This document shows, in pieces, positions 7,640 through 48,553 of a stretch of DNA of 50,000 nt. The position numbers and the translations under genes were made by a program. The DNA is from Chiloscyllium plagiosum (Eukaryota): positions 1-50,000 of the forward strand of contig NW_025214730.1 in the NCBI RefSeq assembly GCF_004010195.1. The letters are read 5' to 3'. The notes below the pieces were generated by a model, which saw only the letters and a program-made list of their open reading frames with translations, was not told the DNA's origin and did no database searches. The first letter of the stretch is position 1, and the number at the start of each line of letters is the position of its first letter.

Positions 7640-8560
7640 AAATTCAAACGTCACAGCGGACGGCAACGACGTTTGGCTCTGAGCTGCGGGGTTGTGCTCC
7701 GCTTCCGGGCGGTCCCGGGGCCTGTCATTGGCGGAAGTGCTGTAGCCCCTCCCCGCTGATGTCACTTCCCTCTGGCGGCCTGTCTGTTTGTGTATCCCGA
7801 TTCAACTGTGACATCGACGCCGGCCTTTTGTTCCTTTCGCCTTCGGGGATTGCGGCTCAGGAAACGAGCTCAAGGAAAGCGTCCTCCTTGTCTCTTCCAT
7901 CCCCGCTCCACCAATCACGGGGACAGTCACCAAGCAAGCGTCCAGACGAGCTGGCTCGCTCATCTTTTCTCTCCTCGGTGGGGAGTGCTGTTATGTTTTG
8001 CTGTTTCGAAGCCTCTAACCAGTGTGTGGAATTAAGCTAAAGGTATTTGGGGGATTGGTGATCGTTACCCCCCCCCCCGAGTGGGGGGCGGGGATGGGGG
8101 CAGTGGTCTGATCCGCATTAACAATCCCGCAGCTCCCGGATGGAGCGTTTGAAAAAAATAACCGAAACGGCTCGAGCCCTCTCAGCTTTCGGACGAAAGT
8201 AAAACTTGTAAGATACGTTGATGGGGATTTTGCGGATAGACTGTTTCCGACCTTCTCCCACCCACACCTGATCCTATGTTTCTTTTAACCATCGATGTGC
8301 TTCTTTAATCCGTTGTGCCTGTTTTATTCTGCGTCTGTCGATGTTCAAAAATAGCGTGGGCCGCTCCGATGTTAACTTTGAGCCTGGTCCGTTGTGAGTG
8401 ATGGTCCAGTCGGCCAATGGGGGGCGGCGCTCGAGGACGTCTCCCCCCCCCGTTGCACCAATGGGCGTGGGGGAGGGGTGGGCTCTCCGATAGAGTCGGC
8501 CACAACAGCCATTTGTAAAAGGGAACGAAGCTCTCCCAGTCCGACAGGAGGGGCGCCTGC
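7640..8560. promoter_or_regulatory. CpG island, probable bidirectional promoter of IKZF5 copy A and a divergent gene
   Basis: Sharp GC/CpG enrichment in an AT-rich background; ETS-like motifs (cttccgg ~7703, gcggaagtg 7731, cacttcc ~7763); CCAAT boxes (~7911, ~8414, ~8458); candidate + strand donor AAG|gtattt after 8042. Confidence 0.8.
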
Positions 8561-8799
8561 AATGGCAAATTAACCTTACATAGTTGATCGTGAGCTACCT
8601 TTGTCGCATTTTAAACACAAACGTACTTTTTAAGTGGTTAGACGAAGCCTCTTTATGCCGAGGATGATTAGTTTCGGAGGGTTTAAGGAGTCACTGGCAG
8701 AGGACACTTTTACCGTGGAGAAGGCAAAAGTGCAGCAGTTAATCCAGTTAGCACTCTTATGTATTGAAAAGACTGAACATTATCCGAGACGACATTGAG

Positions 8800-8951
8800 T
8801 ACTGCAGATGCTAGAAATTAGAGTCAAGATTCAAGTAGTGTTGGAAAACTGTAGCAGGTCAGGCAGCATCTGAGGAGCAGGAAAACTGACATTTCGGGCA
8901 AAAGCCCTTAATAAAGCTACCTGACCTGCTGTACTTTTCCAGCACCACTCT
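8800..8951. repeat. Palindromic (fold-back) short repeat
   Basis: actgcagatgct...ttggaaaactgtagcaggtcaggcagc...tttcgggcaaaagccct...gctacctgacctgctgtacttttccagc. Confidence 0.7.
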
Positions 8952-9409
8952 AACCTTATTATCCTACTCAGTTTAGTGAAAGAGAGCCTAACGTAGGTCA
9001 CTTTTTTTTCTACAAAAGTGACTACAAAGCAAGTACCTAATAATAGTGTTGATAACTGAGGAATTAGTTGAATCAACTGTCGAGGATAAAATATAAAATG
9101 ATTACAAAGAGTAACTATAATTTAATAAAGGATGAATTAATCTTATAATTTAAAAATAGCTCTCTTCCTCAAGTGTGTTCAAATAGTTAGTCAGTACAGA
9201 TGGAAAATTGTTCATTGACTGCTAAGTGTAGACTGTGTGCATCTAGCTACTCTGTATTTAGCGGGCTGTGAAGGAAACAAAAAAATGCTCGTGTGAAGGT
9301 CCTCCTGTCAAAGGTTAGCTCAAATAAAAAGCCCAAAAAGGCCAATCTATTTTTTTTAAAGTACTTGCCAAAGCTTTACAGTGCTTGTTAAATACTATCG
9401 CTTTTATTT

Positions 9410-10030
9410 CCTTTCGTGGAATAGAGGTGTTGCTGGCAAAGCCAGCACATATTGCCCATTCCTCATTGCCCTTGAATTTGGTGAGCTGTCTTCTTGAATT
9501 GCTGCAGCCTGTATGTGAAAGGGAGATTCATGACTCTGACTCAGTGACAGTAAAGGAACAGTGATATACAACTTGTTCAGATTGGTGTATGTCTTGGAGA
9601 GGAGCCTGCAGGCGGTGGTGTTTCTTGCACCTCCTGGTTTTGGATGATAGAGGTCACGGACTTGAAAGTGCTGTCAGTGGAGTTTTGGCAAGCTCGTAGA
9701 TGTGCAGCTATCGTGAACTTGTGGTGAATAGAGTGAATGTTTGTTATGTTAGGTGGAATGTTGATCCCACAGGCTGCTTTCCTCTTGAACATGTTGAATT
9801 TCTTGTCTGTTGTACTCAACAAGTGGAGAATATTTCATCACATTTTGACGTTATGACTTGATGATGGAAAGACTTAGGGGGGAATTGGGAGGTGACACAA
9901 TAATTACAGAATTCCCAAAGTCTGACATACTATTGTAGTCTCAGCATTTAATTTATTAGTCCATTTAAGCATCTGGTTGGTAATCCCCAGCATTTTGGTG
10001 CATGTTCTAGCAATTGTAATGCTGTTGAGT
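9410..10030 (-). mobile_element. Decayed LINE 3' fragment (same family as 32340-35830)
   Basis: Shares similar segments with 32345-32730 and with the reverse complement of 18150-19490. Confidence 0.5.
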
Positions 10031-10298
10031 GCACCTATAAAATTGTAAATGTTGCACTTCGTCAAATGGTGTAAAAATTAGGTTTGCTGATGTTTTTGAA
10101 CGTGGATAGCAAGTTTAGAAGTAGTAAACAGAAGTGGTTTGGAGGGGAAATTCCAGACAGTAGGACTGTAATGAGGAAGGCTTCGCTATGAACACTCAGG
10201 GAAGATGCACTGAAAAGTCAATAGCTGCAGGCTAGGACATGTAACTGAGGAATCTGAAGAAGTAGGATCAAGTGAGGTTGTACAAGGATTTGACGAAT

Positions 10299-11425
10299 GG
10301 AGTCAGGTGTACAGGGTGGAAACAGACCCTTCGGTCCAACTCATCCATGCCAACCAGATATCCTAAATAAATCTTGCTGGCATTTGGCCCATATCCCTCT
10401 AAATCCTTCCTATGCATATACCCATCCAGATACCTTTTTTAAATGTTATAATTATACCAGTCCCCACAATTTCCTCTGGCAGCTCATTCCATACATGCAT
10501 GACCCTCTGTGGAAAAGTTGACCCTTGGGACCATTTTAAATCTTTCCCCTCTTACCTTAAACCTGTGCTCTCTAGTTTTGGACTCCACTACCATGGGAGA
10601 AACAAACACCTTGGCTGTTCACCGTATTTGTGCCCCTCATGATTTTATAAACTTCTATAAGGTCACCACTCAGCTTCCAATGCTCTAGGGAAAATAGGCC
10701 CCAGCTGATTCAATCTTTCCCTATAGCTCAAACCCTCCAACCCTGGCAATATCCTAGCAAATCTTTTTCTGAACTCTTTCAAGTTTCACAGTGTTCTTCC
10801 AACAGCAGGAAGACCAGAACTGAATGTAGTATTCCAAAAGTGGCCTCACCAATCTCCAGTATAGGTGCAACATGACCTCCCAAGTCCAACATTCAATGCA
10901 CTGACAAATAAAGCCAAGCAGACCAAATGCTGTCTTCGTTATCCTGTCTACCTGCGACTCTACTTTTGAGAACTATGAACCTGCCCTCCAAGGTCTCTTT
11001 GTTCAGCAACATTCTCTAGGACCTTACCATTAATTCCTGCTGTGATTTTCCCTTTCCAAAAACCAGTACTTCACATTTATCTAAATTAAACTCCGTCTGT
11101 CCATCTGATCAAGGTACTGTTGTACTCTGATGAAACCTTGGCTGTCCACTACACTACCAATTTGGATGTTATCTGCAAACCTACTAACCAACCTTCTATG
11201 TTCGGTATCCAAATTATTTATGTAAATGACAAAAAGCTGTGGACCCAACACCAATCTTTGTGCCACACCACTGGTCACAGGTCTCCAATCTGAAAAGCAA
11301 CCCTCCACCACCACCCTCTGTCTCCTACCTTCGAGTTAGTTTTGTATCCAAATGGCTAGTTCTCTCTGTATTCCATGTGATCTGACCTTGCTAACCAATC
11401 TACCATGTGGAACCTTGTCAAACAC
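10299..11425 (-). mobile_element. CR1-clade LINE 3' remnant (RT, frameshifted)
   Basis: Minus ORF VVEGCFSDWRPVTSGVAQRLVLGPQLFVIYINNLD...SRFADN is the non-LTR RT GVPQGSVLGP/FADD region; homologous to 33455-34415 and 44005-44900. Confidence 0.9.
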
Positions 11426-11599
11426 CATACTGAATGATTGAGTATAGTAATTGGGCTGGAGCAAACAATAGGCAGAACAACTAATGCTTGCAATGGGTTG
11501 CAGAGGATTTTTGGAGAAGTTAAATCTAGTGGTAACTCAAGTATCAATGTTATTTGCAGTTACAGTATTGTTTGTTTATTTTGTTCAAAGGATGTTTGT

Positions 11600-11930
11600 C
11601 ACTGTCAAAGCCAGCATTGGTTGCATATCTCAAATTGCACTTGGACTGTGTGGCTTACTAGGCCATCTCAACTGGCTGTTAAGTCAAGCACATTGCTGTG
11701 GGTCTGGATCACGTAAAGATAGAGCACCTTTTCTAAAGGATGTTAGTGATCCAACTGGTTCTTTTAGGACTGATTTTGTTGCCACTATTACTGAGATTGG
11801 CTTTGAATTCCGGATTTATTGAATTTAAATTCCACAAGCCGTTAAGATGGGATTTGAAATTATGTCCCCAGAGCGTTAGCCTCAGCTTCTGAATTACTAG
11901 TCTGGTAACATTACCACACTGCCACCATCT
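11600..11930 (-). mobile_element. Degraded tRNA-derived SINE
   Basis: Reverse complement resembles 15972-16320 (gatggtggcagtgtggtaatgttaccagactagtaattcaga). Confidence 0.55.
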
Positions 11931-14032
11931 CCTCTTGTAAGGGGGCAGAGGTGAATATGGAAACAAATGATTATTGGATTCAAATAGAATTTGCAAGTCA
12001 TTTTGAACTAGGTCTAGATGGTGTTAAACTTGACCAAAGCTGGAGTTGAAGAAATTAATGAAGCTATGGAGTCTCAAGCAAGAGGGAAAAAAACACATCT
12101 TTTCAAAGTTCTACCTGAGTGTTCTAGCTCATTACAATTAATATGTTAAGAGCTGATTATGCTGTGACAGAAACTGACACATTGTGGAAACTGACACTAT
12201 AGCTACAAATTACATAAAGGGAGCTGAGGAATAAAACTATTTGTAGGTGTAGTTGCTTATCCAGAGGGGAGAGAATCATGTTTGTGAAGGGTTAGTTTTA
12301 TTTCTGGCATGTGTAGGTAATGTTTGGGGAGATTTTTGCCTTAAAAGAGAGCCTCAATTGTTTTTGGTACTCTTTACTGAACTTGAAGCAGATTTTCTTT
12401 TGTGATTACCATTAGAGTTAAGTTGATTACATGCATGTGTCAACAATTAATTGAATTGGAATAAAAGTATTTTTAAATTTTGGAGACACAAAGATTCCTA
12501 AACTTGATTCATAATCCAAAGGATATCAAACACATTTTGGACCACACAATATATTCACTGGATTTTACTTGTGACTTTCCTGACATCAGAGGGGAAAAAC
12601 GATGGTTGTAACTAATATATTTTCAGTATGTGATTAAGGAGGAGAGAGGCAATCTAATGAGATGGTGATATTAACCACATTATAAATAAACTTTTTTTTG
12701 TTGATGCATTGTTAATTGAGGTGAAAGTGGCAGTGGAAGAGATGTTACACGTGTTTAGGCTAAGAAGGGAAATAAATCAAATAAAATAATTCCTGGCTGT
12801 CTGCAGCACAGACTTGAACTATTTCTAAGGTACTCCTAGGAAGGCATCCAAATGCTTAGTCTGCAACTAACTTAATATACTTTCTTTTAATGTTTTGATT
12901 ATTATTTGAAAGCTGGATAATTGCAAAGGAATAAAATACTTCCCAATTAAAATTAATGTAACTGGAAGCCGTAGCATACTTTAGTTTTCTGTAACATGAT
13001 TTCCTAGAGCTAATCAGTGTTCTTCATTTATTATATATTTGCCATGCAGTTTACATTCTACATTTCAGTATTTACTTAAATATTGTGCAATAAGTTTTCA
13101 ATGGTGCTTTGGTTTGATACCACTTAAATATAGCTCTAAATTTTGGTAAACCTGATCGTAAATAAAATTTCTGGCAAGGAAAAAAATCCATTCACCCGTT
13201 TGGGTACTTTGAATTCTGTGCCTTTCTTAAAAAAATGCATTGTTAATGGCGATGTTCCAATTCCCATAAGTATTTAAATATACCAAGGAGTAAAATAAAC
13301 CAAAATTTGTGAACAGGCAGTGAACATTAGAGAGCAAAATAAGACAGACACTGGAAATCTGAAATGAAATCAAGAAATCCTGGAAGTATTCAGCAGATCT
13401 AATCTGAGTAATTCCAGCATTATCTGTTTGATGTAATTTCTGGTAAAGGCAGTCCCTGAATTGCAAACAGGTTCTTGAGTCCATTCATAAGTCAGTTTGT
13501 ACACAACTTGGAACACACTATGTGACTGTTTAAGTATGAGAAAGCATTTGCATGTTGAATCTGTAAAATTAATATTAATACACCCTGCATGACATTGTGT
13601 TCATAATGAGCATTTGTAGGTCAGATGTTAATAAATCAGGGCTCCTTGTACTGCTGCATGTAAATCAATGTAGCAACTGCAAACTTCTTTATTTTTAATA
13701 AAAGATAAGCTGTACTTGGAACTTGATACTTTATATTTTCAATGTCAGAATTTGGTCAAATCTGGAGGAATGGGTTAATGGTGTGAGGTAGGGATATGGA
13801 AGGAGATGGATAAATATTTGCAATAGAACCAAAAAATGGTTGAATGAAGAAAAACTTTACTCCAGGCTCTGCTTGTTGAATAAAACAGACCATTGTTGAA
13901 AAGATGTTTCGATCTGAATAATACAAGCACATACTGAATTATTTAAAGTATTTTGTTACAGTTGTGGATATGAAATAGTTAATTGTATTTCTTTCTTAAG
14001 GAATTAAAGAAGCTTCAATCAAGGGTAAGAAT

Positions 14033-14165
14033 ATGCGAGAAAAGAGAAATGATTCTGTAGACTTTGTCAAGGACTTTCAAGAGTATCTCACTCAGCAAAC
14101 ACAGCATGTAAACATGATTTCTGGTTCAGTGTGCAATGATAAGGACCCAGAATTACTTCAGCCTG
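14033..14165 (+). CDS. IKZF5: IKZF5/Pegasus copy A, coding exon 1 (exon begins ~14001 with short 5'UTR)
   Basis: Acceptor tttctttcttaag at 14000; ATG 14033 reads MREKRNDSVDFVKDFQEYLTQQTQHVNMISGSVCNDKDPELLQP, matching the Pegasus N-terminus (DFVKDFQEYLTQQT); donor G|gtaagg at 14166; 133 nt, phase 1. Not in the ORF track (too short). Confidence 0.95.
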
Positions 14166-16750: not shown

Positions 16751-16933
16751 CTGGGACAGAAAATCATCAAAATGGAATCCACCATGCTTCAGTTGAAGTT
16801 TCTCTTGATGATGGCTCTGGATTAATAGGAGAAGGGCCAGAAAGGACAGTTGATGGAAAATTAAAGTGTCAGTATTGTAACTATGCCAGCAAAGGGATAG
16901 CACGACTGATGGAGCATACCAGAATGCACACAG
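16751..16933 (+). CDS. IKZF5: IKZF5 copy A, coding exon 2 (ZF1)
   Basis: ggcag|CT acceptor, ACAG|gtaata donor; 183 nt; encodes AGTENHQNGIHHASVEVSLDDGSG...KLKCQYCNYASKGIARLMEHTRMHT (C2H2 ZF1). Confidence 0.95.
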
Positions 16934-21817: not shown

Positions 21818-22746
21818 GTGAGAAGCCCCACAGATGCCATCTATGTCCATTTGCTTCAGCTTATGAGCGTCATCTTGAAGCACATATGCGCTCACATAGA
21901 GGTGAAAAACCATATAAATGTGAGCTTTGCTCGTTTCGCTGCAGTGATCAAAGTAATTTATCCCACCATCGTAGGCGCAGGCATAAACTACTTCCTCTGA
22001 AAGGACGCAGGACATCACTGACCAATAAGAGAATGATGGGAATTTTGCAGAAAAAATCCAGCTTCTCCCTGAACTATGGAAGAAGACCTCTAAATAACTT
22101 TGGACCTTCCATGTTGACACAGAAGACCACAGATTACCTTGATGAGTATTCTCATAACATCTCAGCTGAATCTTATGAGGGTCTGACAAAAGCACAAACT
22201 AGTGGAATCTCAAGGGATGTACAGGAAATGATGGTAGATAATCCATTAAACCAGCTTTCTGCCTTAGCTGGCCAGCTTTCCAGCCTTTCACAAGAAGACC
22301 AAACTCCAGCATCTTCTGATGTGACATGCAGAGATGAAAAGCCTTATCTGATACCACAGTCTGTAGCGCCAATAGTTACCACTGTAGTTTCCAGCGTGGC
22401 TCAAAGCTCATCCAATGCTAGCCCTGATAGACATCCTGTGCACAATCAAAGAACATTCAGTCCAGTGCCAGGCCCCAACAGTGAGCGCAGTGCTCACATG
22501 AGTTCACCCTGCATGACGAACAGCCAACCTAGCACTCCTGCACCTCCAATTCAAGTCCAGGATCCACAGCTCCTGCATCATTGCCAACACTGCGACATGT
22601 ATTTTGCAGACAATATACTTTACACTATTCACATGGGGTGTCATGGTTATGAAAATCCATTTCAGTGTAATATATGTGGTTGTAAATGTAAAAACCAATA
22701 TGATTTTGCTTGTCATTTTGCCAGGGGTCAACATAAGCAAACTTAA
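21818..22746 (+). CDS. IKZF5: IKZF5 copy A, last coding exon (ZF2, ZF3, linker, C-terminal ZF4-5)
   Basis: catgtag|GT acceptor; GEKPHRCHLCPFASAYERHLEAHMRSH..., ends HHCQHCDMYFADNILYTIHMGCHGYENPFQCNICG...FARGQHKQT*; spliced CDS 133+183+929=1245 nt, 414 aa, no frameshift. Confidence 0.97.
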
Positions 22747-28922: not shown

Positions 28923-30269
28923 TACTGGTTGTCTTAAGACTTCCTTTTAATGTTCTATTAGATGAGAGGCCTCTGGTGTATTGGTATTGTCCACATCTCT
29001 GGGCCAGAAGATTCCGTTTCAAGTTACACTTGCTCCAGCACTGTCATAATACATCTGAACAGATTTAAAAAAAAATAACATGCTTTGTTAGACAATATTA
29101 CCTATATTTCAAGTAAATTGAACCAAGAAAATATTTAGGTGAAAAAAGTGACTACTTCCATTTATCGAACAGGCAAGGATTTCTTCAAATACATATTTCT
29201 ACTAGATGCAGTTGTAATGGTGTTGGCAAACGATCATTTCTTTGTATCAGCAGGAGGCAAATTAAACAAATTTGAATAGTTTGCTATAAATGTTGTGGTT
29301 TTTGACTAAGAATGAGTGTCTTAGGATGAAGGTGCATTATTTTATCAGGTATACTTGTTGGAATTTCCATTAGAAATCCAGTGTCCACATTTCCTATCCT
29401 GTTTTTCTTGATATTATCACAATGCAATTGCATATTAAAACCACTGGATGGCTCTTTGGAATAAATCTGTCGTTAGGTTTCCAGCTCTCGATTTTAAGGT
29501 TTCTCTTGTAATCAGTTACTTTCCCTTTAGTTATCTATTACCTAATCTTTAAACTATAATGTTCAACTTTAGAAACAGGCTGCCTTATCTTGAAGATCTA
29601 TTCTAATATTTGTACCCCATTTGTTTCTCTCATCCATTTCATGAACCCCAGTTTCATGTTAGCATTCCTACCTCTAAACCAGGATTTCTGGGTTCAAGTC
29701 CCACCTGTTCCAAAGATGTGTAGTATCATCTCTGAAACAGGTTGATTACAAAATACCCTAGATAGTTTATTTCCAGTGCCTGGGCTAGAGGGAAGGTGTT
29801 TGACGCTAAATGATATTTGGCTTTGAGAATAATTCTTAGAATGCCATTTTCAAGACCTTACTCAAAGTTGTCTTTTAATTGCTGGAATGTCCTTAATTTT
29901 TAAAAATTTGTTCAAATCCTACACACTTGTTTTCCAAAATATTTTACACCGGCCCCAAGGAGACAACAGCACCTAAGGCTTTCTGCCATAGGTGTAAAGT
30001 TGTCTTTACTCTCGACAAATTTTTTGCCCTCTTTGATAGTTAGACAACACTAATTGTGGGACTACAGATCATAGGTCTGGTTCTGTCGTCACACCAGAAC
30101 CATATACAGTAGTAGTGTACTGATATAAAACCGATTGCACAGGGATCAGGTCCTTCGTTCGGTACTTCACCCTTCCTGGTGATATAAAGGTTCTCTCTGC
30201 TGTTTGACAAATGAGGATGTCAGTCATTGCCATGATTGCTGGCCTCTGTTAACGCTGTGGTTTCTAGGG

Positions 30270-31030
30270 TGACAGTTTCCGTGGGGACTCGTTAAGCTGT
30301 CGCACCAATTCCTCCCTCCCGAACTCTGACCTCCCTTCCCCCCCCCCCGGCTTTTGTTCGGTTGCTCGCTTCAATCTTCCAGCCAGGATTCGGCGGAAAA
30401 AAAAAATAGAATTTAAATTAGAAATCCGTTAAATTAGCTGGCCGCCGCTGTCGACGACAATGCCGTTGGTCGCGTGCAAAAGGTCGTCTCCCCTCCGCCA
30501 GCCCGATTGGGATGCTACTCTGGTGAAACGGTGTTTCCAGGGCAGACGTTAATTAGAGGGTAAGTGAACAAATACAATGTTTAAATGCTGGTAGGTAGGT
30601 CGGATGCAGCGTTAGTGTTCCTTTTAAGAGCGAAGAGCTGTATATTATATACATTTAAGGAGTCCAAGTCGATCGATTGACGCGACGACCTAACGCTCCC
30701 CGGACATGTCTGTCTCCAGCTCCTTGAATTATTTGACGTCTGTTTGTACTAACCCCCATCCCTTTCGGGAGACAGTTTTAATATCCCACATCCCCTCCCC
30801 CATTTCCAAATCCACAACACAGCCTGAGCGGCGCAGCCTAACATGCTGATGGACTGTCCGTGATTGACATTGGGTTGGCTCAATGGGAACCGGCGGCCGC
30901 TGTGACTGACCAATCGGCTCGAGCAGGCCAGGCAGCGGTGCCGCCCCTCCATCAGCAAGGTCCCTTGAGAAGTGAATGGGAACAAGGTGGGAGGGAGTGC
31001 GTGTCAATCACCGACATCAGGGTGTCCAGC
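30270..31030. promoter_or_regulatory. CpG island, probable promoter and non-coding exon 1 of IKZF5 copy B
   Basis: Second CpG-rich island; consensus donor GAGG|gtaagt at 30560; CCAAT/ATTGG boxes (~30505, ~30910); 11.8 kb upstream of the copy B acceptor with no other gene recognised between. Confidence 0.7.
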
Positions 31031-31555
31031 ATCCAGTCGCTCTCCCTCCAAATAAAACCAATTACAAATGGAATAGAAATTATCGAACATCTTGGAAACA
31101 AGAAGTTTATTCTTCAAAGGATAAGCTATCACTGATGATCACCTTGAGTTCAGGGTTACTTTCTTATAATGTTGAAACTATTATAGGACGACGTGATTCG
31201 CAATTGTCCTAATGAATAGTTTAGAATCACATGCCAGCCTTTGAGTACAATAGAGGTTCACTAGGTTTGTGGTTTCAAGGGACTGTCTTATGAAAATTGA
31301 TTAAATAGACTCTCGTGTTTAAAAGGAGGGACGATCTCAATGAAGCATACAAAATTCCTAAGGGACAAGAGGGTACGCGCTGATGGGATGTTTTCTCCTT
31401 TTGGGGGTGCACTCTCAGAATAAGGGATTGGCCATTTAGGATTGAGACCAGACGACACCTCTTCATTGAAAGTCTCCACGCCAGTGAACTGTGGATGCTG
31501 AGTCAGTGCTTATATTCAAAAGTAACCAATAGACTTATGGATGAGAGAAAGTGAG

Positions 31556-31749
31556 GGCTGCAGATGCTGGAGATCAGAGCTGAAAATGTGTTGCTGGAAA
31601 AGCGCAGCAGGTCAGGCAGCATCAAAGGAGCAGGAGAATTAACGTTTCGGGTATAAGCCCTTCTTCAGGAATGAGGAATGTGTGTTCGATTCTCCTGTTC
31701 CTTGGATGCTGCCTGACCTGCTGCGCTTTTCCAGCAACACATTTTCAGC
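31556..31749. repeat. Fold-back Penelope-type repeat, ~61-bp stem with hammerhead-like loop
   Basis: Arms 31579-31639 and 31689-31749 are reverse complements with 2 mismatches; the loop reads CTGAAGA-AGGGCTTATACCC-GAAACGTT on minus. Confidence 0.8.
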
Positions 31750-33092
31750 AGGAATAGACTTATGGATGTCAAGCTCATGCAGGAAAGTGGAATTGTGGTG
31801 GAAGATTAGCCATGATCATGTTGAATGGCAGGGCAGGTTCAAGAGGCCAAAAGATCCATGTCTGAACCATTTCTTATCTTATTACATCCTGTGTTTGGTT
31901 GCACTGTGGCTGCAAAGAAACATCTTAGCAAACAATACAGAATGAAATATTCCAGTATACATTAAAATATGTGGTATTTGTGTGTATGCACACAGTATGA
32001 AATAAATGTAATACATACAGATTCTGCCCTTAACATCTCCCATCTGTGTGTTGAGCAGCAACACACAATATTTGTTTGCCACTATATTTATCAACAGATT
32101 TTCCTCTAAACACATCTGTTACATGGGAATTTTTTAACAGTGTAAAAAAGGGGAAATTATGATAGAAATGATTTGCACCAATAATTACTACTCCATATTG
32201 TTCCCCCCAAGACATATGATCCACTGTTGTTCCAGGTGAAAACAGGTTTGCTTTCCCACTGAAATCAAAGCTTTGCTTTCCCATTGAAATCAATGGCAAT
32301 CACCACTTGTTCATTTTGAGACTTCTGCCACTTGCACAAAAATGATGTGGTGTTCCCATGTATCTGCTGCTACTGTTCTTCTAGATTGAAGTGTTTATTT
32401 GTTTGCGAGATGCTGTCTTAGGTTCTTTGGATTTCTGTGGTGCATCTTGTAGACTATACATAGCTGCTACTGTGGATCGGTGATGGAGGGAGTGGATGTA
32501 CTACCTGTCAAGCAGGATGTTTTTTCCTGGATGGTGTCATGCTTCTTGAGTGCTGTTGGAGCTACAGCCAACCAGGCAAGTGACTTGTGCCTTGTAGATA
32601 GTCAAAAGACACTGGTGAGTCAGGAGATGAGTTACTTGCCACAGTATACCTAGCCTCTGAGCTACTCATAGCTACTGTGTTTATGTGACGGGTCCAGTTG
32701 AGTTTCTGGCCAATAGTAACCCCAAATATTTTGATAGTCAAGGGACGGTGATTAAACTGTCTCTTATTGGAGATGATCACTGCTTGGCATTTGTGTGGCA
32801 CAAATGTTGCTTGCCATTTTTCAGCTACAGCCTATATATTGTCCAGATTTTGTTGCATTTGAACTTGGACTGGTTCAATACCTGAGGAGTCACAAATGGT
32901 ACTGAACATTATGGAATTATCAGGAAGTGTCCCCATTTCTGACTTTATGATGGAGGGAAGATCATTGATGAAGTTGGTTGGGCCGAGGACACGACTGAGG
33001 ACCTGCAGAGATGTCCACGAGCTGAGATGACTGAACTCCAACAATCACAAGCATCTTTCTATTTGCCTGGTATGACTCCAACCAGCAGAGAG

Positions 33093-33454: not shown

Positions 33455-34415
33455 GAGTTATATAGCACGGAAATAGACCCTTCTGTCCAAATCACCCGCA
33501 CCAACTGTATATCGTAAACTGATCTAGTCCCATTTGCAATATTTTGGCCCACATCTCTCTCAATCTTTCCTATTCACGTACCCATCCAGATGCCCTCTAG
33601 GTTTGGACTCCTCTACCCTGGGGAAAAGACCTTGACTATTCACCCTATTCATGCTCCTCATGATTTTGTAAACCTCCATAAGGTCACCCGTCAGCCTCTG
33701 ATGCTCCTGGAGAAAATGCCTCAGCCTATTCCACTTTTCCCTATAGCTTAAACTCTCCAATCTTGGCAACATCCTTGTAAATATTTTCTGAACCCTCTCA
33801 AGTTTAATAATTCCTTTCCTGTAGCAGGGAGACCAGAACTGAATGCAGTATTGTAAAAATGGCCTCACCAATGTCTTTTACAAGTGCACCTTGCAAAGGC
33901 TATGAGCCTTGACAACATTCCAGCAATAGTACCGAATTTGCCAATCCTGTACTCAGTGCACTGACTAATGAAGGCAAGTGTGCCAAATGCCTTCTTCACT
34001 ACCCCGTCTACTTGTGACCCTATTTTCAAGGAACTATGCACCTTCACACCTAGGTCCCTTTGTTTGGCAATACTCCCCAGGACCCCACTATTGTATAAGC
34101 CTTACCAAACTGCAACACCTTACGTTTATCAAAATTAAATGTCATCTGCCACTCCTCGGCCTATTTGCCCATCTGATCAAGGTCCTGTTGTACTCTGAGA
34201 TTACTTTCTTCACTGTCCACTACGCCACCAATTTTGGTGACATCTGCAAATTGACTAACCATTACCTCCTATATTCACATTCAAATCATTTATATAAATG
34301 ATGAAAAGCAGTGGACCCAAATCCTTGCAGCACATCACTGGTCACAAGCCTGCAGTCAAAAATCAACCCTCTACTACTGTCCGTTGTCTCTCACCTTCAA
34401 GCCAATTTTGTATCA
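33455..34415 (-). mobile_element. CR1-clade LINE 3' remnant
   Basis: ORF VRPFLQYCIQFWSPCYRKGIIKLERVQKIFTRMLPRLESLSYREKWNRL is the typical CR1 ORF2 C-terminus. Confidence 0.9.
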
Positions 34416-35829
34416 AAACTGGTACCCAAACTGGGTGTCGGTGAGCATGTGCTGCTTAATAGTACTGTTGATTACACTTTCCATCACTTCACTAATAATT
34501 ACAAGTAGACTGATGGGACGATAATTGGTTGGACTGGATTTGTCCTGCATTTTGTGTATGAAACATACTTGGGCAATTTTCCACATTACTGGGTAGATAG
34601 CAGTCTTGTAATTAAACTGGGAACCACTTGGTTAGGAAAACAGCAAGTTCTGTACTATTACTGGAATGTTGTCAGGCCCATGGCCTTTGCAGAATCCAGT
34701 GCCACCAACTGTTTCTTGATATCAAATGGGGTGAACTGAATTGGCTGAAGACAAATGCAGGACAAATCCAGTCCAACCAATTATCGTCCCATCAGTCTGT
34801 AATGCTGTGGACCACTAGAGGTCAAAATGGATCATCTACTTGGCACTTCTAGCTGAAGATTACTGCAAATACTTCAACCTTTGCACTTAAGGTTTTGCTC
34901 TTCTGTCATTGAATTTGGGGATATTTGTGAAACCTTATCCTCCAGTGAGTTGTTTATTTGTCCACCACCATTTATGACTGGATATGGCAGCACTGTAGAG
35001 CTTAGATCTGATTCATTGGTTGTAGGATTGCTTAGCTCTGTGTATCACTTGCTGCTTGTGCTGTTTGGCATGCAGTAGTCCTGTTTGATAGCTTCACCTG
35101 GTTGGCATGTCATTTTCAGGTATGCCTAGTGCTGCTACTGGCATGTCTCCTGCGCTGTCCATTGACCCATTGATGGTAATGGTTAAGTGGGAAATATGCT
35201 GGGCCATGAGGATGCAGATTGTGTTGGAGTACAATTCTGCTGCTGTTGACGGTGCACAGCGCCTCATCAATATCCAGTCTTGAGTTGCTAGATTTGTCTG
35301 AAGTTTGTCCCATTTAGCACAGTTAGTACCACACAGAATGCTGGAGGGTATTCTCAATGTGAAGACAGGACTTTGTCTTGATAAAGACTGTACAATGGTC
35401 ACTACTAGTGATGCATCTGCAACTGGCAGATTGGTATGGATGAGGTCAAATATGTTTTTCTCTCTTGTTGGTTCGGAGTCAATATTAAGGACTCTGAGGG
35501 CAATTCCTTCCCAACAGTATACCACTGAGCCAGCACCTCTGCAAGTCTGCCCTGCTGGTGGGACAGGACATATTCAGGGATGTTGATGGTAGCATCTGAG
35601 ACATTGTCTATTAGGTATGATTCCACAAGTATGAGTATGTCTGTCTGGTGCTTGACTAGTCTGTGAGACAGTTCTCCCAGTTTTGACAGTAGACCCCAGA
35701 AGTTAATAAAGAAGACTTTGCAAGGTTGACAGGGCTGTTTGTGCTATTGTCTCTTCTGAAGATTAGGTTGTTGCTGCATGGTCCATCAGGTTTCATCTCA
35801 TCCTCGAGACTTTGTAGAGATTGACAAAA

Positions 35830-36115: not shown

Positions 36116-36235
36116 TCCTTTGTACCCTGGTTTTAGATTCACCAGCCAAGGCAAATATCTGCATACATCCTATTACACCCCTCATTAAGAATGTTTTGAG
36201 TTTCACCCTCATTCTTTGAAATTCTAGGGAGTATA

Positions 36236-37773
36236 CTGTATATACTCAAGGAAATCTTGATCCCATGTAAAAGTCAAAGCACTATTCTTGGCCAAAAAAT
36301 CTAGAATTTTCCATATATCTCGTGTAAAAGTCGACCCTAGTTCTTCACATAATTCATACCGACATTAGGCTTCGGATTTCTTAAGTTCATCATTGAGCAA
36401 ACACTATAATTAGTATTCACTTTTTGTACGGCTGTTCTGCTCTGCTCGAGAGCTCTGTTCTGCTAGCCGTCCCACTCTGTTCTGGAACTCTGTTCTGCCA
36501 ACAGTTCCCGCTCAGTTTCAGGATTCTAGTCTGCCAGCTGTTCGCGCTTCATTCCGGGATTCCAGCTTGCTGGCCATTCCTGCTCCGCTCCAGGATTCCA
36601 GTCTGCCAGCCATTCCTGCTCCATTCTGGGATTCTAGTCTGCCAGTTATTCCCGTTCCATTCCGGGATTCCAGTCTGCCGGTCATCCTGCTCCATTCTGG
36701 ATTCCATTCTGCCAGCCATCCCGCGCCGCTCCGGGACTCTGTTCTGCTGGCCGTTCCTGCTCTGTTCTGGGATTCCAGTCGCCGGCCGTCCTGCTGCACT
36801 CCAGGACTCCGGTCTGTTGGCCATCCCTCTCTATTCTGCCAGCCGTTCCACTCCTTTCCGGGACTCCAGTCTTCTGGCCGTACCACTCTGTTCCTGCATT
36901 CCAGTCTGCCAGCCGTGCAGCTCCGATCTGGGATTCCAGTTTGCCGGCCGTCTGGCACCGTTCGGGGATTCCAGCCTGCCGACCGTCCAGCTCCGGTCTG
37001 GGATTCCAGTCTGCCGGCCGTCTGGCACCGTTCTGGGATTCCAGTCTGCCGGCCGTCCAGCTCCGGTCTGGAATTCCAGTCTGCCGGCTGTCCAGCTCCG
37101 GTCTAGGATTCCAGTCTGCCGGCCGTCCAGCTCCGATCTGGGATTCCAGTCTGCCGGCCATCCAGCTCCGGTCTGGGATTCCAGTCTGCCGGCCGTCCAG
37201 CTCCGGTCTGGGATTCCAGTCTGCCGGCCGTCCTCCTGCGGTCTGAGATTCTAGTCTGCCGGCCGTCCTGCTCCGGTCTGGGATTCCAGTCTGCTGGCCG
37301 TCCTGCTCCAGTCCTGGATTCCAGTCTGCCGGCCGTCCTGCTCCAGTCTGGGATTCCAGTCTGCCGGCCGTCCTGCTCCGGTCTGGGATTCCAGTCTGCC
37401 GGCCATCCTGCTCCAGTCTGGGATTCCAGTCTGCCGGCCGTCCAGCTCCAATCTGGGATTCCAGTCTGCCGGCCATCCTGCTCTGGTCTGGGATTCCATT
37501 CTAGCCTTCAGCTGCACCGATGATGTCATTGTCGCTCCAAGGTTTATCACTAATTCATTTTATCTTCTATTTTCGTTATTCGATAATTACTGTAATTCAT
37601 TGTGTCTTTTTCTTTATTCGTTTCAAGATCAACTGGGCTTCTAATGATACAGTATGAATTTTGACGGGCATGAATTTCAGCCCATCAAAAGTAGTATCCA
37701 TCTAATAGTCGATCCCATAAATTTAACCTTAAAACATATTCAAAAAAAATTCAACTCTTATGCGTATATATGG
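36236..37773. mobile_element. Non-autonomous pogo/Tc1-type element carrying an internal minisatellite
   Basis: ta|CTGTATATACTC ... GCGTATATATGG|ta ends; subterminal tgtaaaagtc(g)a repeats at ~36266 and ~36323. Confidence 0.6.
36430..37500. repeat. GC-rich 35-bp minisatellite, about 30 copies
   Basis: Unit ccagtctgccggccgtcc(a/t)gctccggtctgggatt; period 35 (e.g. 37076, 37111, 37146); degenerate at the left, homogeneous at the right. Confidence 0.95.
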
Positions 37774-40738: not shown

Positions 40739-42391
40739 TATGAAAAGTTAAGAGGAGCTTTGATATCTTGGAGGATGCTGCTGTCGAAAATGCTGATAGT
40801 CCACTGCTGCTGGTATAGTTTGGGCACGGACCATCATGTGTTTTCTGAAAGCAGTACGTTGTCATCTGAGGCCAATGGAGATAAAGTGATACAACGAAAA
40901 AGTACGACACAATTAATTTTGGATTGCAATAACAAGAATGTAGTTATAAAGGGCCAAATGGACTCCACCTTAAAATAAGTCTCTGATTTTGTACAGTCCT
41001 TGCCCTTTAGTACATTCTGTTTGTATCCTCAGCTTTAAAATTTGCAACAGATAAAAATAAGATATACAGTATAAAGGAATAAATTAAGCTATCATGACAA
41101 TTAGTCCTCAGAATAGTAGTGAAAATCACAAATACTAAGCTATGAGATGATTCATTCAATTACCTTCTATTCTCCTATTATATCATACATGACATGGTTA
41201 CCACCCTTTTCAGAAATCCTGTACTTCTGAAAGTGTTAAACAGAATCTGCTGATATTACTAATCAATGAACCAGTGTGTTATACTCATCTGACTTCACTG
41301 GCTTTGGTTGTAGTCCCTTGAATAAAAATATTATATCAAGAATTTACAACTACTTGTGCTAAAGTAAAGCTGTATCTGTATAAATCTATATGTCTCCTCA
41401 ATTAAGAAGCAGCTCAAGCTCAATGTGTCTCAGCCAGGGATCTTTACAGATGATGTAACCAATTGTGAATTGAAAGCCAGAAGCTCCCTCAATATTTCAA
41501 AATTGTGCCGTTGTAATGAAGTACTGCACCATCTACATGCACAAGATGCCCCTTTTCAGTATATCATGATGTATATTGTGCTACAGAAAACATGAGAAAC
41601 AAAATTGCAGAATTCATGCAGTTTTCATAATGGAACACAACATCCCATACGTGTTGGGCAACATCAAAGGTACATGTAGATCAACACTTCAGGTCCTGTG
41701 AGGGATCTTGACTCCCTACAATTCTTTACATAAACAAGCATGGAGATATTGCATATATGTCACTGATAGCATCAGCCCAACGTTAGCATGATAAACATAT
41801 CCCACCTTTATACTTATTGTTTCTCTTTTATTCTTATAACCTGGCAACATGAAGGAGATATAATTATTTTTTCTAATCATACTGCCATTCTATTCTTGCT
41901 GCATTTTTCTAGTTTTAATTCTGAGAAATTCAAACTGCTGGAACAGTAGAACCTTCTCAGATACCTATAAAAATAGCGCCAGTTGCAATGCTAAATGACT
42001 GCTGTCAAGTTTGGTTTTGTAGATGTGATTCTGTGCTGTTATAAATATGCTTTTGCAAAAGATTTGGGAGTTGGCATTTCAGTATCATTTCACAAAACTG
42101 TTTGAAGAAGTAGTTCTCTAAATTAAATATATGCTATTATGTAGCGTTAAGAGTTCCTACTGAGCAGTTAAAACTCCTCACTGTTCAGTCACAGCAACTT
42201 TGTTGTACTGCTCTGATGAGTATTTGATCACCTCATTTGAAATATTAATAGATAATAACATACTTTGACAAATGCCTATTGCTACAACATTCAAATTTTA
42301 ATAAGTTTTGTTCTTCACAATGTATTCCTCATAAAGTTATATTTTCTTTTTTCAAGGAAATAAACCAATTTTTTTAAACATTTGAGAGATC

Positions 42392-42524
42392 ATGGAGGAG
42401 AAGAGAGCTGCTTCTGTAGATTTCGTCAAGGATTTCCAGGAGTATCTCACTCAACAAACCCAACATGTGAACATGATATCTGGCTCTGTTGGTGTGGAGA
42501 AGGACCCAGAATCTCTACAAACTG
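42392..42524 (+). CDS. IKZF5: IKZF5/Pegasus copy B, coding exon 1 (exon begins ~42357)
   Basis: Acceptor ttttcttttttcaag at 42356; ATG in atcATGg context; MEEKRAASVDFVKDFQEYLTQQTQHVNMISGSVGVEKDPESLQT; donor G|gtaagg; 133 nt, same as copy A. Confidence 0.95.
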
Positions 42525-44004
42525 GTAAGGACATTTTTGTCTGCAAAAATTATGTTTTGTGCATAGTGAATACTGGCATGCTACTCTGAGGCTAACTTGT
42601 CCACTATGGTTACTTAGATTCATAGAAAGAGGAAGTCCCGAATCAGGACTGACAAATTAAAATCTCCACTTGACCGAATTAAATGTCTGTCTTGAGGGGC
42701 CGAAGCAAGGAGGGTTAATATTGGCTGAAAATGTTTTCTTTTCAATAAACTAAATGCTTTCTGAACAAAAATGTTGCAAACCAGCCAGTGATGTACAATA
42801 GATTATAAATTGTATATTTAAAAATGTATCTGGTTATATGAAAGTTTATTGTAAAAGCAGGCAAAAAGTAATCTGAAGATTTCAATGCCATTGGTCAATG
42901 ATCTTTTCAATAAATTTATTCATTAACAACATTGTTAATGGTTGTATTTTAATGTCAGAGGGTGGCATGTGAATGGAATGACTGTCAGAGGAAGCTGGTA
43001 CAATTGCAACTTTTAAAACGCATTGGATGGATATATGAATAGAAAGGGTTTTCATTGATCATTTGCAGCACTTTTTCCCCAGTGTGTTATTCCCTAATTT
43101 GACCACTCTCTTTCCTGTTATCACTCCATACACCTGTTTCTCAACTCTGACCAATTCATTCTCCTACATTGCATTTTTCTTTAACTTCTTGCAGTTGTTT
43201 TTCTAATTTATTAAGAAATCCTAGCAGACAAACTTCAAAATCTTTATTCAACTAGTTCATGTAATGTATTTAATGTACACCTGTTGTAGCTGTTGTTTTC
43301 ATCCTTCCTCATGTTAGTAGTTGAGCTTTTAACAAAAACAACGCCAGGTGAATTCTGAAGCCAAATCATTATGTCGCTGTGTGATTCTTCTCAGGTTAAA
43401 TAGACAAGAGTTTCTCCATTTGAATCTGTTTTTTCAAAGTATTAAAAGATGCCTCTTTGAGGAAGATATGGAAAAGATGAATTTGAGGGCAATGCAAACT
43501 ATCCTGGGATGCAGGAAAAGGGCAACAATAGATCAAAGTGTTATAGATGAAGTGGACGATCATAGAATAAGTGGTGGTTAAGTTGTGGAGGGATGGAAAG
43601 ATAAAGGGCCAGGGAATAAATTGTATATGAAAATGTGAGCATGGATAATTGTGGGTCAAGGGGAGAAAGGGAAGGTTTGGGAAAGAAAGTTACAAGAGCC
43701 TCATTTTTCCTGTAATTATTTAAAGGCTTTTGATGCATTATCCCACTACACCACTCCATGCCACCCACTTCTAGAAAGGAACAAGAAATTAAAGTGAGAA
43801 ACAAAAAGTGTTAAGGAGAAAGAAACAGAAGTGAAAAAGATAGACAAGGAGACAACTGACAATGAAAACAAAACAGATCTTGGTAAAAGATAGGTTCTGT
43901 TTTATTATATAGACTACCATAGGAGATTTGGTATATGGGTGATATGTTTTGTTGGAATCTGCTGTCTAAACTAATTTTATATTATTAGCCTTACCTCAGT
44001 AGAG

Positions 44005-44900
44005 TCTTGAGATGCACAACACGGAAACAGACCATTCGGTTCAACCCATCCATACCGACCAGATATCCCACCTGCCAGTACCCAGTCCATAACCCTCCAA
44101 ACCCCTTCCTATTCATATACCCATCCAGATACCTTTTAAATGTTGCAATCGTACTATTCATATACCCATCCAGATACCTTTTAAATGTTGCAATCGTACT
44201 AGCCTCTAGCACTTCCTCTGGTGGCTCATTCCATACACGTACCACCCTCTGGGCGAGAAACTTGCCCCTCCGGTCTCTTTTATCTTTCCCCTCTCACCCT
44301 AAACCTATGCCCTCTAGTTCTGGACTCCCCCACCCCAGGGAAGGTACTTTGTCTATTTATTCTATTCATGCTCTTCAATCCTAAGCCTCCGACTCTCCAG
44401 GGAAAACAGACCCAGCCTATTCAACCTCTCCCAATAGCTCAAATCCTCCAACCGTGGCAACATCCTTGTATATCTTTTCTTAACCTTTTCAAGTTTCACA
44501 ACATCCTTCCGATAGGAAGGAGACCAGATTTGCACGCAATATTCCAAAAGTGGCCTAACCAATGTCCTGTACAGCCGCAACATGATCTCCCAACTCCTGT
44601 ACTCAATACTCTGACCAATAAAGGAAACATACCAAATGCCTTCTTCACTATCCTATCTACCTGCGACTCCACTTTCAAGGAGCTATGAACCTGCACTCCA
44701 AGGTCTCTTTGTTCAGCAACACTCCCTAGGACCTTACCATTAATTGTATCAGTCCAGCTAAGATTTGCTTTCCCAAAATGCAGCACCTCACATTTATCTA
44801 AGTTAAACTCCATCTGCCACATCTCAGCCCATTGGCCCATCTGATCAAGATCACGTTGTAATCTTGAGGTAACCTTCTTCGCTGTCCACTACACCTCCAA
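44005..44900 (-). mobile_element. CR1-clade LINE 3' remnant in copy B intron
   Basis: ORFs WAEMWQMEFNLDKCEVLHFGK and LRLYRTLVRPLLEYCVQIWSPSYRKDVVKLE; internal 45-bp tandem duplication 44109-44198. Confidence 0.92.
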
Positions 44901-44964
44901 ATAATTATATTAGTCCCTCTGTATTACATCATGAACTTAAACCCCATTCCAGAATTAAGCCTAT

Positions 44965-45310
44965 TAATCAGTACCAATCCAGTATTGAGGAAGTGCTGCT
45001 GGGTCATTGGTGCCATCTTTCAGATGAAATATTAAACTAAAGGCTCATCTGTTCTTTCAGATGCCCATAAATTTTCTAGCACACTATTTAAGAGCAGAAC
45101 AGTTCCCTGGCTATCATGGTAATCTAGCCACCATTTCATTCCTCAAATAAGTTCACTAAGACAAATTAATTTCTGTTGGACCTTGCTGCACACAAATTGA
45201 CTTAGTTTTCTCTACATTATAACGATTACCATACTGTGAGTACTTAATTAGCTGAATTACTTTAGGATGTCCAGAGGTCAAGGAAGTTACAATATAAATT
45301 CAAGCTCCTT
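44965..45310 (+). mobile_element. Old DeuSINE-like (SacSINE/AmnSINE Deu-domain) remnant
   Basis: ggtgccatctttcagatgaaatattaaactaaaggctcatctg resembles the Deu-domain consensus as recalled; 3' end resembles a SINE tail (tataaattcaag). Confidence 0.45.
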
Positions 45311-45813
45311 CGTAAAGGGAAATCTTTTCATTAGAAATAAAAACTCTATTTATTTTATCATCTGTGGTTCCTGTGTTGTAATGGGACTTTACTCATTTCA
45401 GCTGTTACCTGTTTGTGTTAGCTGAATGCATATTGCAATGCTTGAGAATGTAAGACTTAGTCAGAAAACATTCAATAAAAATGAAATTTGACTTTAGCAC
45501 CTGTAAATCATTAATTTACATATTAATATTTATTACAAAATAGTAGATATTTTACTGTCAACAAGAATTACCACAGAAAATCAATGAATATTTGCAGAAA
45601 TACAAAACAACGTTTCAGAAATGTCTTTCATGCGGTAGTTTTTCTCTTAACATTTGCTATAAATGTAGAAAATGATCACAGAACTTTTTTATGAACGACA
45701 ATATATTTGTGTCACCTGTATTGTAAAATGATTTTCTTCTCTCATAGCTGTCTGTACTTCAGATTGCAGAGAATTTTTAATTCTTCCTATTTTTCTGGGA
45801 TTTATTACTGCAG

Positions 45814-45993
45814 GATCAGAAAATGATCAAAATGGAATGCATCATGCTTCAGTTGAAGTTTCATTGGATGATGGCTCTGGGCTTATGGCTGATGGGCTTG
45901 AAAGAACATATGATGGAAAACTAAAGTGCCGATACTGCAACTATGCTAGTAAAGGGACTGCACGTCTGATGGAGCATATCAGAATGCACACAG
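45814..45993 (+). CDS. IKZF5: IKZF5 copy B, coding exon 2 (ZF1)
   Basis: ctgcag|GA acceptor, ACAG|gtaaca donor; 180 nt; GSENDQNGMHHASVEVSLDDGSGLMADGLERTYDGKLKCRYCNYASKGTARLMEHIRMHT. Confidence 0.93.
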
Positions 45994-47621
45994 GTAACAA
46001 CTGTACATTGACTTCTACGTGATCTAAAATAGAAGTTATTATCAGATGTTTATTTCTATTCTAACTACCTAAAGGAGCAGTACTGTACAATAAGGTGAAA
46101 ACATACTAATTTAATGAACATGCTCAGTTACATAAAATCCAAATTTCTGGAATGTCAATTGACAATGAGGTAAACAACCTTTTGATTCATTTTGATGATT
46201 AGGTTGGTAGAGAGATGGTAGGTTGTATGATAGAGGACAAGCTCTTCTCTTGACAAATGTTGTTGTTTTAATGAAGAGAATAATTTATACAAAATTATTA
46301 AATTCTAACTGAGACCAAACTGGGGTATTTAGATAGCATTTAGCGTCCAGGTTGATATTAAGTTTGTGGTATTGATTATGAGTGTGACGTGTAAAACTAT
46401 TTCTTGACATAAATTGACTTAAATGGAGTCTCACCATCAAAGTCCCCTTAAACTACAGTTAATTTTTATTTTCTGCCATGTCGTATTGGATTACTTTGGT
46501 TAAAGTTGTGTTGCTAACTTCATTGTTGGAAGTAGTTTATGATCATTTGTTGTTTGGTATTGTAAGGCAGTTAATTTGACATTTGCTGATACATTAATTA
46601 ACTCAGTTTAGATCAATTAATGTTCCTGTTTTTATGGTATTAGTATTGATTCAGTTTCTCCACAAGGTTAGGTTCTGTCACTTAGGAACATAGACTTCTT
46701 GCAGGATTTCCCCAGCAACTATCGTTCTCCCTTTTTAAATACCAATTTTCTCAGAACAAATAAGCTAAAGGATGTTAAATTTGATCACAATTCTTTGTAA
46801 CAGTTTGATTTTTTTTAAAAGGAGTACCGATGGTGAGTCTCCCCAGTTTAAAGTGAAAAGGGCTTCGACTAACGAAAAAGCAGGTAAGGATCAATGTATT
46901 CAGTAACCATCTGGTTAAGCCTACGATAGCATAGTACAGTACTGCTCCTCTAAGTAGGATATATAAAGCTGTAAAATCAGCAGATAAAGGCTACAGTTCT
47001 TTCTTATAATTATGTTTGAGTTTTTTTTTGTAATTAGAGAATGGCACCCATAATATACAATGTGTTATGATTTGACAATGCAGGAACTGCTGTCACTTCT
47101 GATTTTCAAAATGCATCCTGTAAGAGGCAAGTTATTTTCTGTTGATTTTTCAATTGGAAACATATTTCATCTTCAACGTTTTTAATGAGATTTCATTCAA
47201 AAACAGATGGCAGATAACCAAGTAGCTAAGAAGCTGAGATAATTTCAAGTTACCTCATCATATTTCATGTTAGCTAAAATTCCAGCCCTTAATGTGATAG
47301 TGAGTAGGGTGCAAACATCCAACTGACACACATCCATCAGCTATATTGGTGGAGTTTCATCAGTTTGTAATTGACCCACTACAGAAAATAATCCACAAAT
47401 CTGAACTGCCTCACCATGAGGAAAGAAAAACAAAACTGTCCAGATTTCTTACATAGCAACTATGTTGACAACCAGATGGGATTGTTGACAATGATCTTAA
47501 GAGTTCCACCACTCTGTCGCACTCCTAGCTAAAGGAAAAGCTACTTGGTGGAGGAAAAATTAGAAAAATGCAAAAAGGGAGAAAAATGGCAAGGTTTGCT
47601 GATCTATTCTTTCTGATACAG

Positions 47622-48553
47622 GTGAGAAGCCCCACAGATGTCACCTATGCCCGTTTGCTTCAGCGTATGAGCGGCACCTCGAAGCACACATGCGCTCACA
47701 CACAGGTGAAAAACCGTACAAATGTGAGCTTTGCTCTTTCTGCTGCAGTGATCGAAGTAACCTGTCCCATCACCGTAGACGTAGGCACAAACTTCTTCCC
47801 TTGAAAGCTGCTAGGACCTGCCTGACCAATAAGAAAATGTTGGGCATTTTGCAGAAAAAAACTAACAACTCCCTGAGTTATGGGACAAGACTTCTGATTA
47901 ATCTAAGTCCTTCTTCCATGATGATACCGAAGCCAGATTACCTCAATGACTTTTCTCATGATATGTCAGCTAACTCCTATGAGGGTTTGCAAAAAGTACA
48001 GTCTGTTGGGATCTCAAGGGACATGCAAGATATTATGGTGGATAATCCATTAAACCAGCTTTCTACCTTAGCAGGCCAATTGTCCAGCATTCCACCTGAA
48101 AATCAAGCTCCAGCATCTCCTGAGGTGGTAGCCTGCAGGGATGAAAAACCATATGTGATTTCACAGTCTACAGCTCCAGTCGTTTCCACGGTAGCTTCCA
48201 GTGTCGCCCAAAGCTCATCTCCTATCAGTCCAGATGCATGTCCCATGCAAAATCAGCGGAACTTCAGTCCTGTGGCTGGCCCCAGTAGTGAGCATAGTGC
48301 TCATACAAGTACACCCAGCGTGACGAACAGCCAGCCTAGCACCCCTGCTCCTGCACTTCAGGTCCAGGATCCCCAACTTCTGCATCATTGCCAACACTGT
48401 GACATGTATTTTGCAGACAATATCCTTTACACTATTCATATGGGGTGCCATGGTTACAAGAACCCATTCCAATGTAACATATGTGGATGTAAATGTAGAG
48501 ACAAATATGACTTTGCTTGTCATTTTGCTCGGGGTCAACATAAGCAGAATTAA
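47622..48553 (+). CDS. IKZF5: IKZF5 copy B, last coding exon (ZF2, ZF3, linker, ZF4-5)
   Basis: gatacag|GT acceptor; open to TAA 48553; spliced CDS 133+180+932=1245 nt, 414 aa; all zinc ligands intact. Confidence 0.97.

Follow-up and report, generated by a model that had tools for sequence, protein, structure and literature searches.

The 50,000-nucleotide contig NW_025214730.1 of Chiloscyllium plagiosum (hereafter the window, which is, as far as shown, the whole of an unplaced 50-kb contig) carries two intact, old and conserved genes for IKZF5, or Pegasus, a zinc-finger protein of the Ikaros family. The genes lie in tandem, and we designate them A (upstream) and B (downstream). To judge from protein alignments, the divergence between them is strongly one-sided and falls in the upstream copy A. 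We put at about even the chance that copy A underwent an early functional alteration and was then retained, with copy B being the conventional Pegasus. The gene models comprise the following exons.

7936..8042, + strand: gene A non-coding first exon, 3' part (one contig of run X15)
14033..14165, + strand: gene A coding exon 1 (the exon starts at 14001; sequence and run X15 contigs)
16751..16933, + strand: gene A coding exon 2, zinc finger 1, with Q85, I94 (16897-16899) and T101
21818..22746, + strand: gene A coding exon 3, with fingers 2-3, the middle region, C-terminal fingers 4-5 and the stop
42392..42524, + strand: gene B coding exon 1 (sequence model; product identical to P0161)
45814..45993, + strand: gene B coding exon 2, zinc finger 1 (sequence model, P0161)
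47622..48553, + strand: gene B coding exon 3, fingers 2-5, with C146, the sole fixed derived residue of B

A sequence-only reading of this DNA had described two complete genes of three coding exons each, on the same strand, with common intron positions and phases and products of 414 amino acids apiece, and our models agree with it throughout. Each coding sequence runs for 1245 nt on the + strand and translates into 414 amino acids without stop or frameshift, and a six-frame motif scan of the window places five C2H2 fingers in each gene, on the + strand. All four coding introns are GT-AG and in phase 1 at positions common to both genes, and their sizes (2585 and 4884 bases in gene A, 3289 and 1628 bases in gene B) are exactly those reported. 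The products are identical at 321 of 413 aligned residues (78%), and the coding sequences at 983 of 1239 nucleotides. By the NG86 method, synonymous divergence (dS) is 0.83 and nonsynonymous divergence (dN) is 0.13, giving a dN/dS of 0.16 (codon bootstrap 0.11-0.22). This lies far below 1, as expected from the purifying selection that the earlier reading had proposed; by region, the ratio is 0.03-0.04 in the fingers and 0.29 in the middle of the protein. The introns had also been said not to align, and blastn (word 7, E<0.05) indeed returned no match between corresponding coding introns, nor between the 3' flanks or promoter regions of A and B. In the presumed introns of the 5' untranslated regions, dispersed repeats are the only sequence that the copies have in common by blastn, and no conserved non-coding sequence between copies A and B was found with blastn at word 7.

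By sequence criteria, genes A and B are IKZF5/Pegasus, and for either last exon the top matches that carry a name are Pegasus/IKZF5. When the genome was searched in six frames, with 128 of 3927 candidates scored, full-length IKZF5 matches came up at genes A and B only. Database proteins P0138 and P0161 have exactly the sequences of the two spliced products, P0161 that of gene B. Both are RefSeq entries named "Pegasus-like" and labelled Chiloscyllium, one of them on a 50,000-base contig, so the two genes are already annotated. The suggestion that the pair represents an extra Ikaros-family member stands if it is taken to mean a second paralogue of IKZF5, one of two genes that RefSeq already lists.

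Gene A is transcribed and spliced as modelled. An RNA check had been proposed for the pair, and for gene A, contigs from public runs span the modelled junctions. A 1288-base contig of run X15 joins coding exons 1-3, skipping exactly 2585 and 4884 bases, and a second contig of this run joins the end of the non-coding exon at 8042 to 14001 (joint 8039/13998, cut +3), skipping 5958 bases between GT and AG. The first coding intron is also removed in run X2. Raw RNA reads of run X22 cover the last exon of gene A at a depth of ~2, in one orientation and with no exon joints. Part of the last exon of gene B occurs in 18 of 24 run rows, none of them recorded as RNA, and was not used as evidence. Splicing of the B type has indirect support from P0198, a full-length B-type protein of 414 amino acids that is encoded on a 1355-base Logan contig of the skate cluster; full-length A-type proteins of the same length (P0175, P0177, P0180, P0181 and P0183) are likewise found on Logan contigs. 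The Logan contigs that encode full-length A or B proteins measure 1.4-2.0 kb, which is below the room needed for the introns of this window.

One-sided divergence in copy A

Once a caecilian row from a low-quality model had been removed, the alignment of 20 A rows and 21 B rows, chimaera included, contained 12 columns fixed for different residues in A and B. Eleven of these are derived in A and one in B; when agreement of the cyclostomes is required, the count is seven to one. Relative-rate tests gave p<0.05 in 20 of 24 comparisons, which are not independent of one another. Over 18 species, mean identity within copy A is 92.4% and within copy B 90.3%, and after its early burst copy A is, as far as these proteins tell, at least as conserved as B.

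Changes fixed in the DNA-binding region of copy A are R85Q, T94I, T133R and R150Q, and I101T is nearly fixed. In the standard C2H2 helix numbering, T94I and R150Q both fall at +1, and the roles of helix +1 residues are those of the general C2H2 code. Three of the features of gene A coding exon 3 concern us here.

21898..21900, + strand: gene A codon 133, AGA (Arg); the linker between fingers 2 and 3 is RGEKP, not TGEKP
21949..21951, + strand: gene A codon 150, CAA (Gln), finger 3 helix +1; Arg elsewhere
22006..22017, + strand: gene A RRTS motif (RRxS/T), directly behind finger 3

With isoforms counted separately, T133R (TGEKP to RGEKP) occurs in 39 of the 286 Pegasus proteins that have the motif, all of them A type, with T in the other 247, and Q150 occurs in 40 of 298, again all A type, the remaining 258 being without Q. 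Of 1711 linkers in unrelated zinc-finger proteins, only 16 begin with arginine. The RRxS/T motif behind finger 3 is present in 20/20 A rows and in 0/21 B, 0/28 bony and 0/3 cyclostome rows; the RRxS of copy A may be a PKA-type (basophilic) kinase site. R146C, the single fixed change of B, recurs in three bony proteins and a single A protein. A, B and bony rows agree at positions -1, +2, +3 and +6 of the three DNA-binding fingers, and in the C-terminal fingers 4 of 52 positions distinguish A from B. In the stretch that joins fingers 4 and 5, the residue is K in the elasmobranch B rows shown and E in the A, chimaera B, bony and cyclostome rows, which points to a later charge change (E to K) in the dimerisation region of elasmobranch B, encoded in the gene B exon at 47622-48553.

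We propose that a tandem duplication preceded the chimaera/shark split and that copy B stayed near the ancestral protein. Copy A would have passed through an early burst of changes and then been kept, likely as a functionally altered Pegasus. Its predicted DNA motif is that of B (GNNTGTNG for IKZF5), because the base-reading positions -1, +2, +3 and +6 are unchanged. Its affinity may be altered through T94I and R150Q, both at helix +1, and through R85Q and I101T. T133R would take the putative phosphate-accepting threonine from one of the two linkers of A and so alter its phospho-control, to which the new RRxS motif behind finger 3 could add. Mixed A/B dimers are likely, given that the C-terminal dimerisation fingers are so little changed. 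The promoter of A is probably two-way with ACADSB and B probably has a CpG island of its own, so the expression of the copies may differ. As background to this scheme, passages of PMC4359306 state that linker residues stabilise binding, that mitotic phosphorylation of the first linker Ser/Thr lowers DNA binding by C2H2 proteins, and that TOPK/PBK is the kinase of mitotic linker phosphorylation. IKZF5 has five fingers in all and binds GNNTGTNG, according to tables of PMC10291195.

Several points weigh against an altered function of copy A. The first TGEKP linker of A is intact, and mitotic switch-off of A may thus persist. Asymmetry followed by constraint would fit early relaxation and drift as well. 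The skate Leucoraja shows no rate asymmetry (0/3 tests significant). Lastly, the 26 PDB matches with E<=1e-15 include no structure of Pegasus on DNA.

We give somewhat less credence to a reading in which A and B do the same job and are kept by divided expression from two promoters or by dose, the changes in A having drifted and been tolerated. In its favour, A and B have the same residues at the canonical base-reading positions and almost the same C-terminal fingers, the two CpG islands of the window are separate and show no detectable similarity, and gene A stands head-to-head with ACADSB. However, the changes of A fall at sites that are constant from hagfish and lamprey to mammals (T133R, 39 against 247; R150Q, 40 against 258). 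Moreover, the changed residues are constant in all A rows, and one would expect neutral sites to have changed again in the course of 300-420 million years (My).

A bolder version of altered function, which we consider unlikely, holds that copy A is a sixth Ikaros-family factor, found only in cartilaginous fish and having a job of its own. It would still read Pegasus sites, but its mitotic linker switch would have been swapped for a basophilic kinase site, and it might tune or compete with B via mixed dimers, for instance in the programmes of thrombocytes or blood cells. If this were true, copy A would amount to a natural experiment of more than 300 My on fingers whose variants in human IKZF5 cause thrombocytopenia.

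IKZF5 is required for human platelet production, and cartilaginous fish are the key outgroup for the origin of the blood and immune systems of jawed vertebrates. The second Pegasus of that outgroup is old and conserved, and its DNA-binding part is altered. Missense changes in the N-terminal fingers of IKZF5 cause human thrombocytopenia, as stated in part of PMC8431765. Because copy A is a long-tolerated variant of this thrombocytopenia-linked domain, the function of the linker and of helix +1 becomes directly testable. In practical terms, expression studies in sharks must tell two "Pegasus-like" genes apart.

Distribution and age of the pair

The last exon of gene B matches proteins of Heterodontus (95%), Hypanus (89%) and Callorhinchus (86%), and that of gene A matches other proteins, in Heptranchias (92%), Mobula (88%), Amblyraja (84%) and Callorhinchus (81%). 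Both types are present in at least 20 of the 22 chondrichthyan species named in the cluster lists, including the chimaera Callorhinchus. Two catsharks have at least one type each, among the best 15 of 18 and the best 15 of 16 cluster members, respectively. The earlier reading had placed the duplication in "a cartilaginous fish lineage". This was right as to the group and too narrow in scope, as sharks, rays, skates and the chimaera all have both copies. In 18 of 18 comparable species the longest source contigs of the A and B types are equally long, and the RefSeq accession numbers of A/B pairs are near-consecutive in most species; we infer that A and B are adjacent in other chondrichthyan species too.

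In a careful tree of 28 rows, the A clade (support 100/100, stem 0.11 changes per column) and the B clade (84/76, stem 0.008 changes per column) each contain a Callorhinchus protein, and both clades, again each with a Callorhinchus protein, recur in a quick tree of 69 rows. On these phylogenies the duplication predates the split between chimaeras and elasmobranchs, because each clade has its own chimaera member. A species-specific or recent duplication is ruled out for this reason. The age of the holocephalan/elasmobranch split is given as 300-420 My in a passage of PMC6238376. The proposal of an old tandem duplication retained in cartilaginous fish is thus borne out by the dS of 0.83, by the presence of both types across chondrichthyans and by the trees. 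Both trees hold Pegasus rows only and for this reason do not bear on IKZF5 versus IKZF1-4.

A stem-chondrichthyan origin of the duplication is favoured, not proven. Maximum-likelihood analysis of the 28 rows, rooted on cyclostomes, groups A with B at 93/83. The outgroup consisted of two lamprey proteins and one hagfish protein, the lamprey proteins coming from a 50%-cluster search dominated by zinc-finger arrays. A rival timing, which we hold to be improbable, has the duplication predate the split between bony and cartilaginous vertebrates, with one copy lost in bony vertebrates and gene conversion possibly mimicking a sister relationship of A and B. This rival is a matter of timing, and both functional readings could accommodate it. 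In its favour, approximately unbiased tests rejected neither a grouping of B with bony proteins nor one of A with bony proteins (p 0.101 each), clean columns number only two for A+B against one and one for the alternatives, and the outgroup branches are long, as the tree tool itself warned. Set against these are the A+B grouping and the distribution of the A signature, which appears in no bony-vertebrate protein among the 309 Pegasus-type proteins fetched. Forty-two of the 309 score nearer A than B, and they comprise 40 A types of the chondrichthyan clusters, a divergent goby protein and a partial lamprey protein. No A-like protein of bony vertebrates was thus found in this set, in which coelacanth and lungfish are not present by name. 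The teleost duplicates, furthermore, are placed inside the bony clade.

That the pair is a two-haplotype assembly artefact, or that one copy is dead, is barely credible: although the contig is an unplaced 50-kb piece and gene B splicing in this species is taken from the sequence model alone, an artefact is ruled out by the dS of 0.83, the unalignable introns and the separate orthologues of each copy in sharks, rays and the chimaera, and a pseudogene by two intact frames and a dN/dS far below 1.

Likely promoters, neighbours and placement of the contig

Four further features of the window concern the promoters and the nearest neighbour of the pair.

7001..9000, no strand: CpG island (CpG observed/expected 0.58-0.90 in 500-base windows), likely the two-way promoter of gene A and ACADSB
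30001..31500, no strand: second CpG island (CpG observed/expected 0.57-0.87), likely the promoter of gene B
30560, within the second CpG island: candidate donor GTAAGT, seen in the sequence
7390..7416, - strand: probable ACADSB coding exon 1 (27 nt, starting with ATG; donor GTGAGT), head-to-head with gene A

The derived copy A thus probably sits at a promoter shared with ACADSB, and the conservative copy B probably has its own CpG island; separate promoters would mean that their expression may differ. One X15 contig has its end precisely at 7390. Splicing of the 27-nt exon to an acyl-CoA dehydrogenase exon on chromosome sequence C22 would preserve the frame (phase 0), and a downstream exon of that C22 gene has as its best PDB match 2jif, the short/branched-chain enzyme. 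Within the region that we examined for placement (G000:C22:30,718,181-30,772,468), the acyl-CoA dehydrogenase gene and PSTK both lie on the - strand, in an order and orientation that fit ACADSB-IKZF5-PSTK, presumably the order of the human neighbourhood. On the upstream side of the ACADSB exon at 30,730,464, and ~4.8 kb away from it, is a gap of 500 N; two further gaps lie closer to PSTK. Comparison of the window ends with C22 around the gap gave no overlap, only matches between repeats. Because the likely ACADSB exon 1 joins the C22 exon in frame, the contig most likely fills the C22 gap between ACADSB exon 2 and PSTK, giving the order ACADSB, A, B, PSTK, and a 50-kb contig can thereby be placed in a chromosome gap.

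Several repeats were noted in the window. A 35-bp G+C-rich tandem array of ~28 copies occupies 36494-37502, inside what is presumably the first intron of gene B, and has long open frames on both strands that are apparently a by-product of the repeat. A dispersed family is represented by three fragments of 600-850 bases, 68-73% alike, at 10410-11352, 33590-34418 and 44154-44900. Its copy at 44.5-44.9 kb has a reverse-transcriptase-like frame on the - strand, and we take the family to be of the long interspersed element (LINE) type. Two short copies resembling short interspersed elements (SINE-like), inverted and adjoining, lie at 31579-31750, and an inverted pair resembling them is found at C22:30,756,330-30,756,511. 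Elsewhere in the genome, a dense C2H2 zinc-finger cluster at G000:C37 ~0.4-6.0 Mb accounts for most of the 150 matches listed in the genome search.

Comparison with known Ikaros-family genes

There is nothing unusual in kind about a tandem duplicate that is retained and evolves asymmetrically. A full-text literature search found no description of a tandem Pegasus pair; the Ikaros-evolution surveys of John 2009 and Kastner 2024 and most shark-genome supplements lay outside its reach. The tandem pair is not described in the passages of PMC7617475 and PMC13755043 consulted, "ikzf5" is absent from the shark papers among the matches listed, and one file of the elephant shark genome supplement (PMC3964593) contains no match to Ikaros, IKZF or Pegasus.

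The other members of the family, IKZF1-4 (Ikaros, Helios, Aiolos and Eos), have a C-terminal finger pair homologous to that of A and B. Unlike A and B, they are dispersed, not tandem, and matches to them are limited to the C-terminal fingers. The genome search (128 of 3927 candidates scored) returned five further C-terminal finger-pair matches (L003-L007) of 42-52% identity, on C43, C7, C5, C4 and C33. Four of these were translated, and we take three to be IKZF1-4-like and one to be TRPS1-like. Passages of PMC8689071 count five members in the Ikaros family and give IKZF1 four DNA-binding fingers and a GGGAA core.

Teleosts offer a parallel, in that two IKZF5 paralogues ("Pegasus" and "Pegasus-like") have been retained in one lineage. 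Their duplicates lack the linker and finger-3 changes of copy A. They stem from an independent event, since they branch inside the bony clade, and presumably from the teleost genome duplication.

The closest comparison is with IKZF5/Pegasus of bony vertebrates, such as human, bichir, gar and birds. Like the shark copies, these proteins have three N-terminal and two C-terminal C2H2 fingers and the N-terminal motif DFVKDFQEYL. Well-modelled non-teleost proteins are 68-78% identical to the shark copies, and the gene order ACADSB, IKZF5, PSTK is probably that of the human neighbourhood as well. Unlike bony vertebrates, this shark has two tandem copies. The fingers and linker of copy A are altered at places where the bony and cyclostome rows examined show little or no variation, and copy B has one fixed change, R146C, which occurs sporadically elsewhere.

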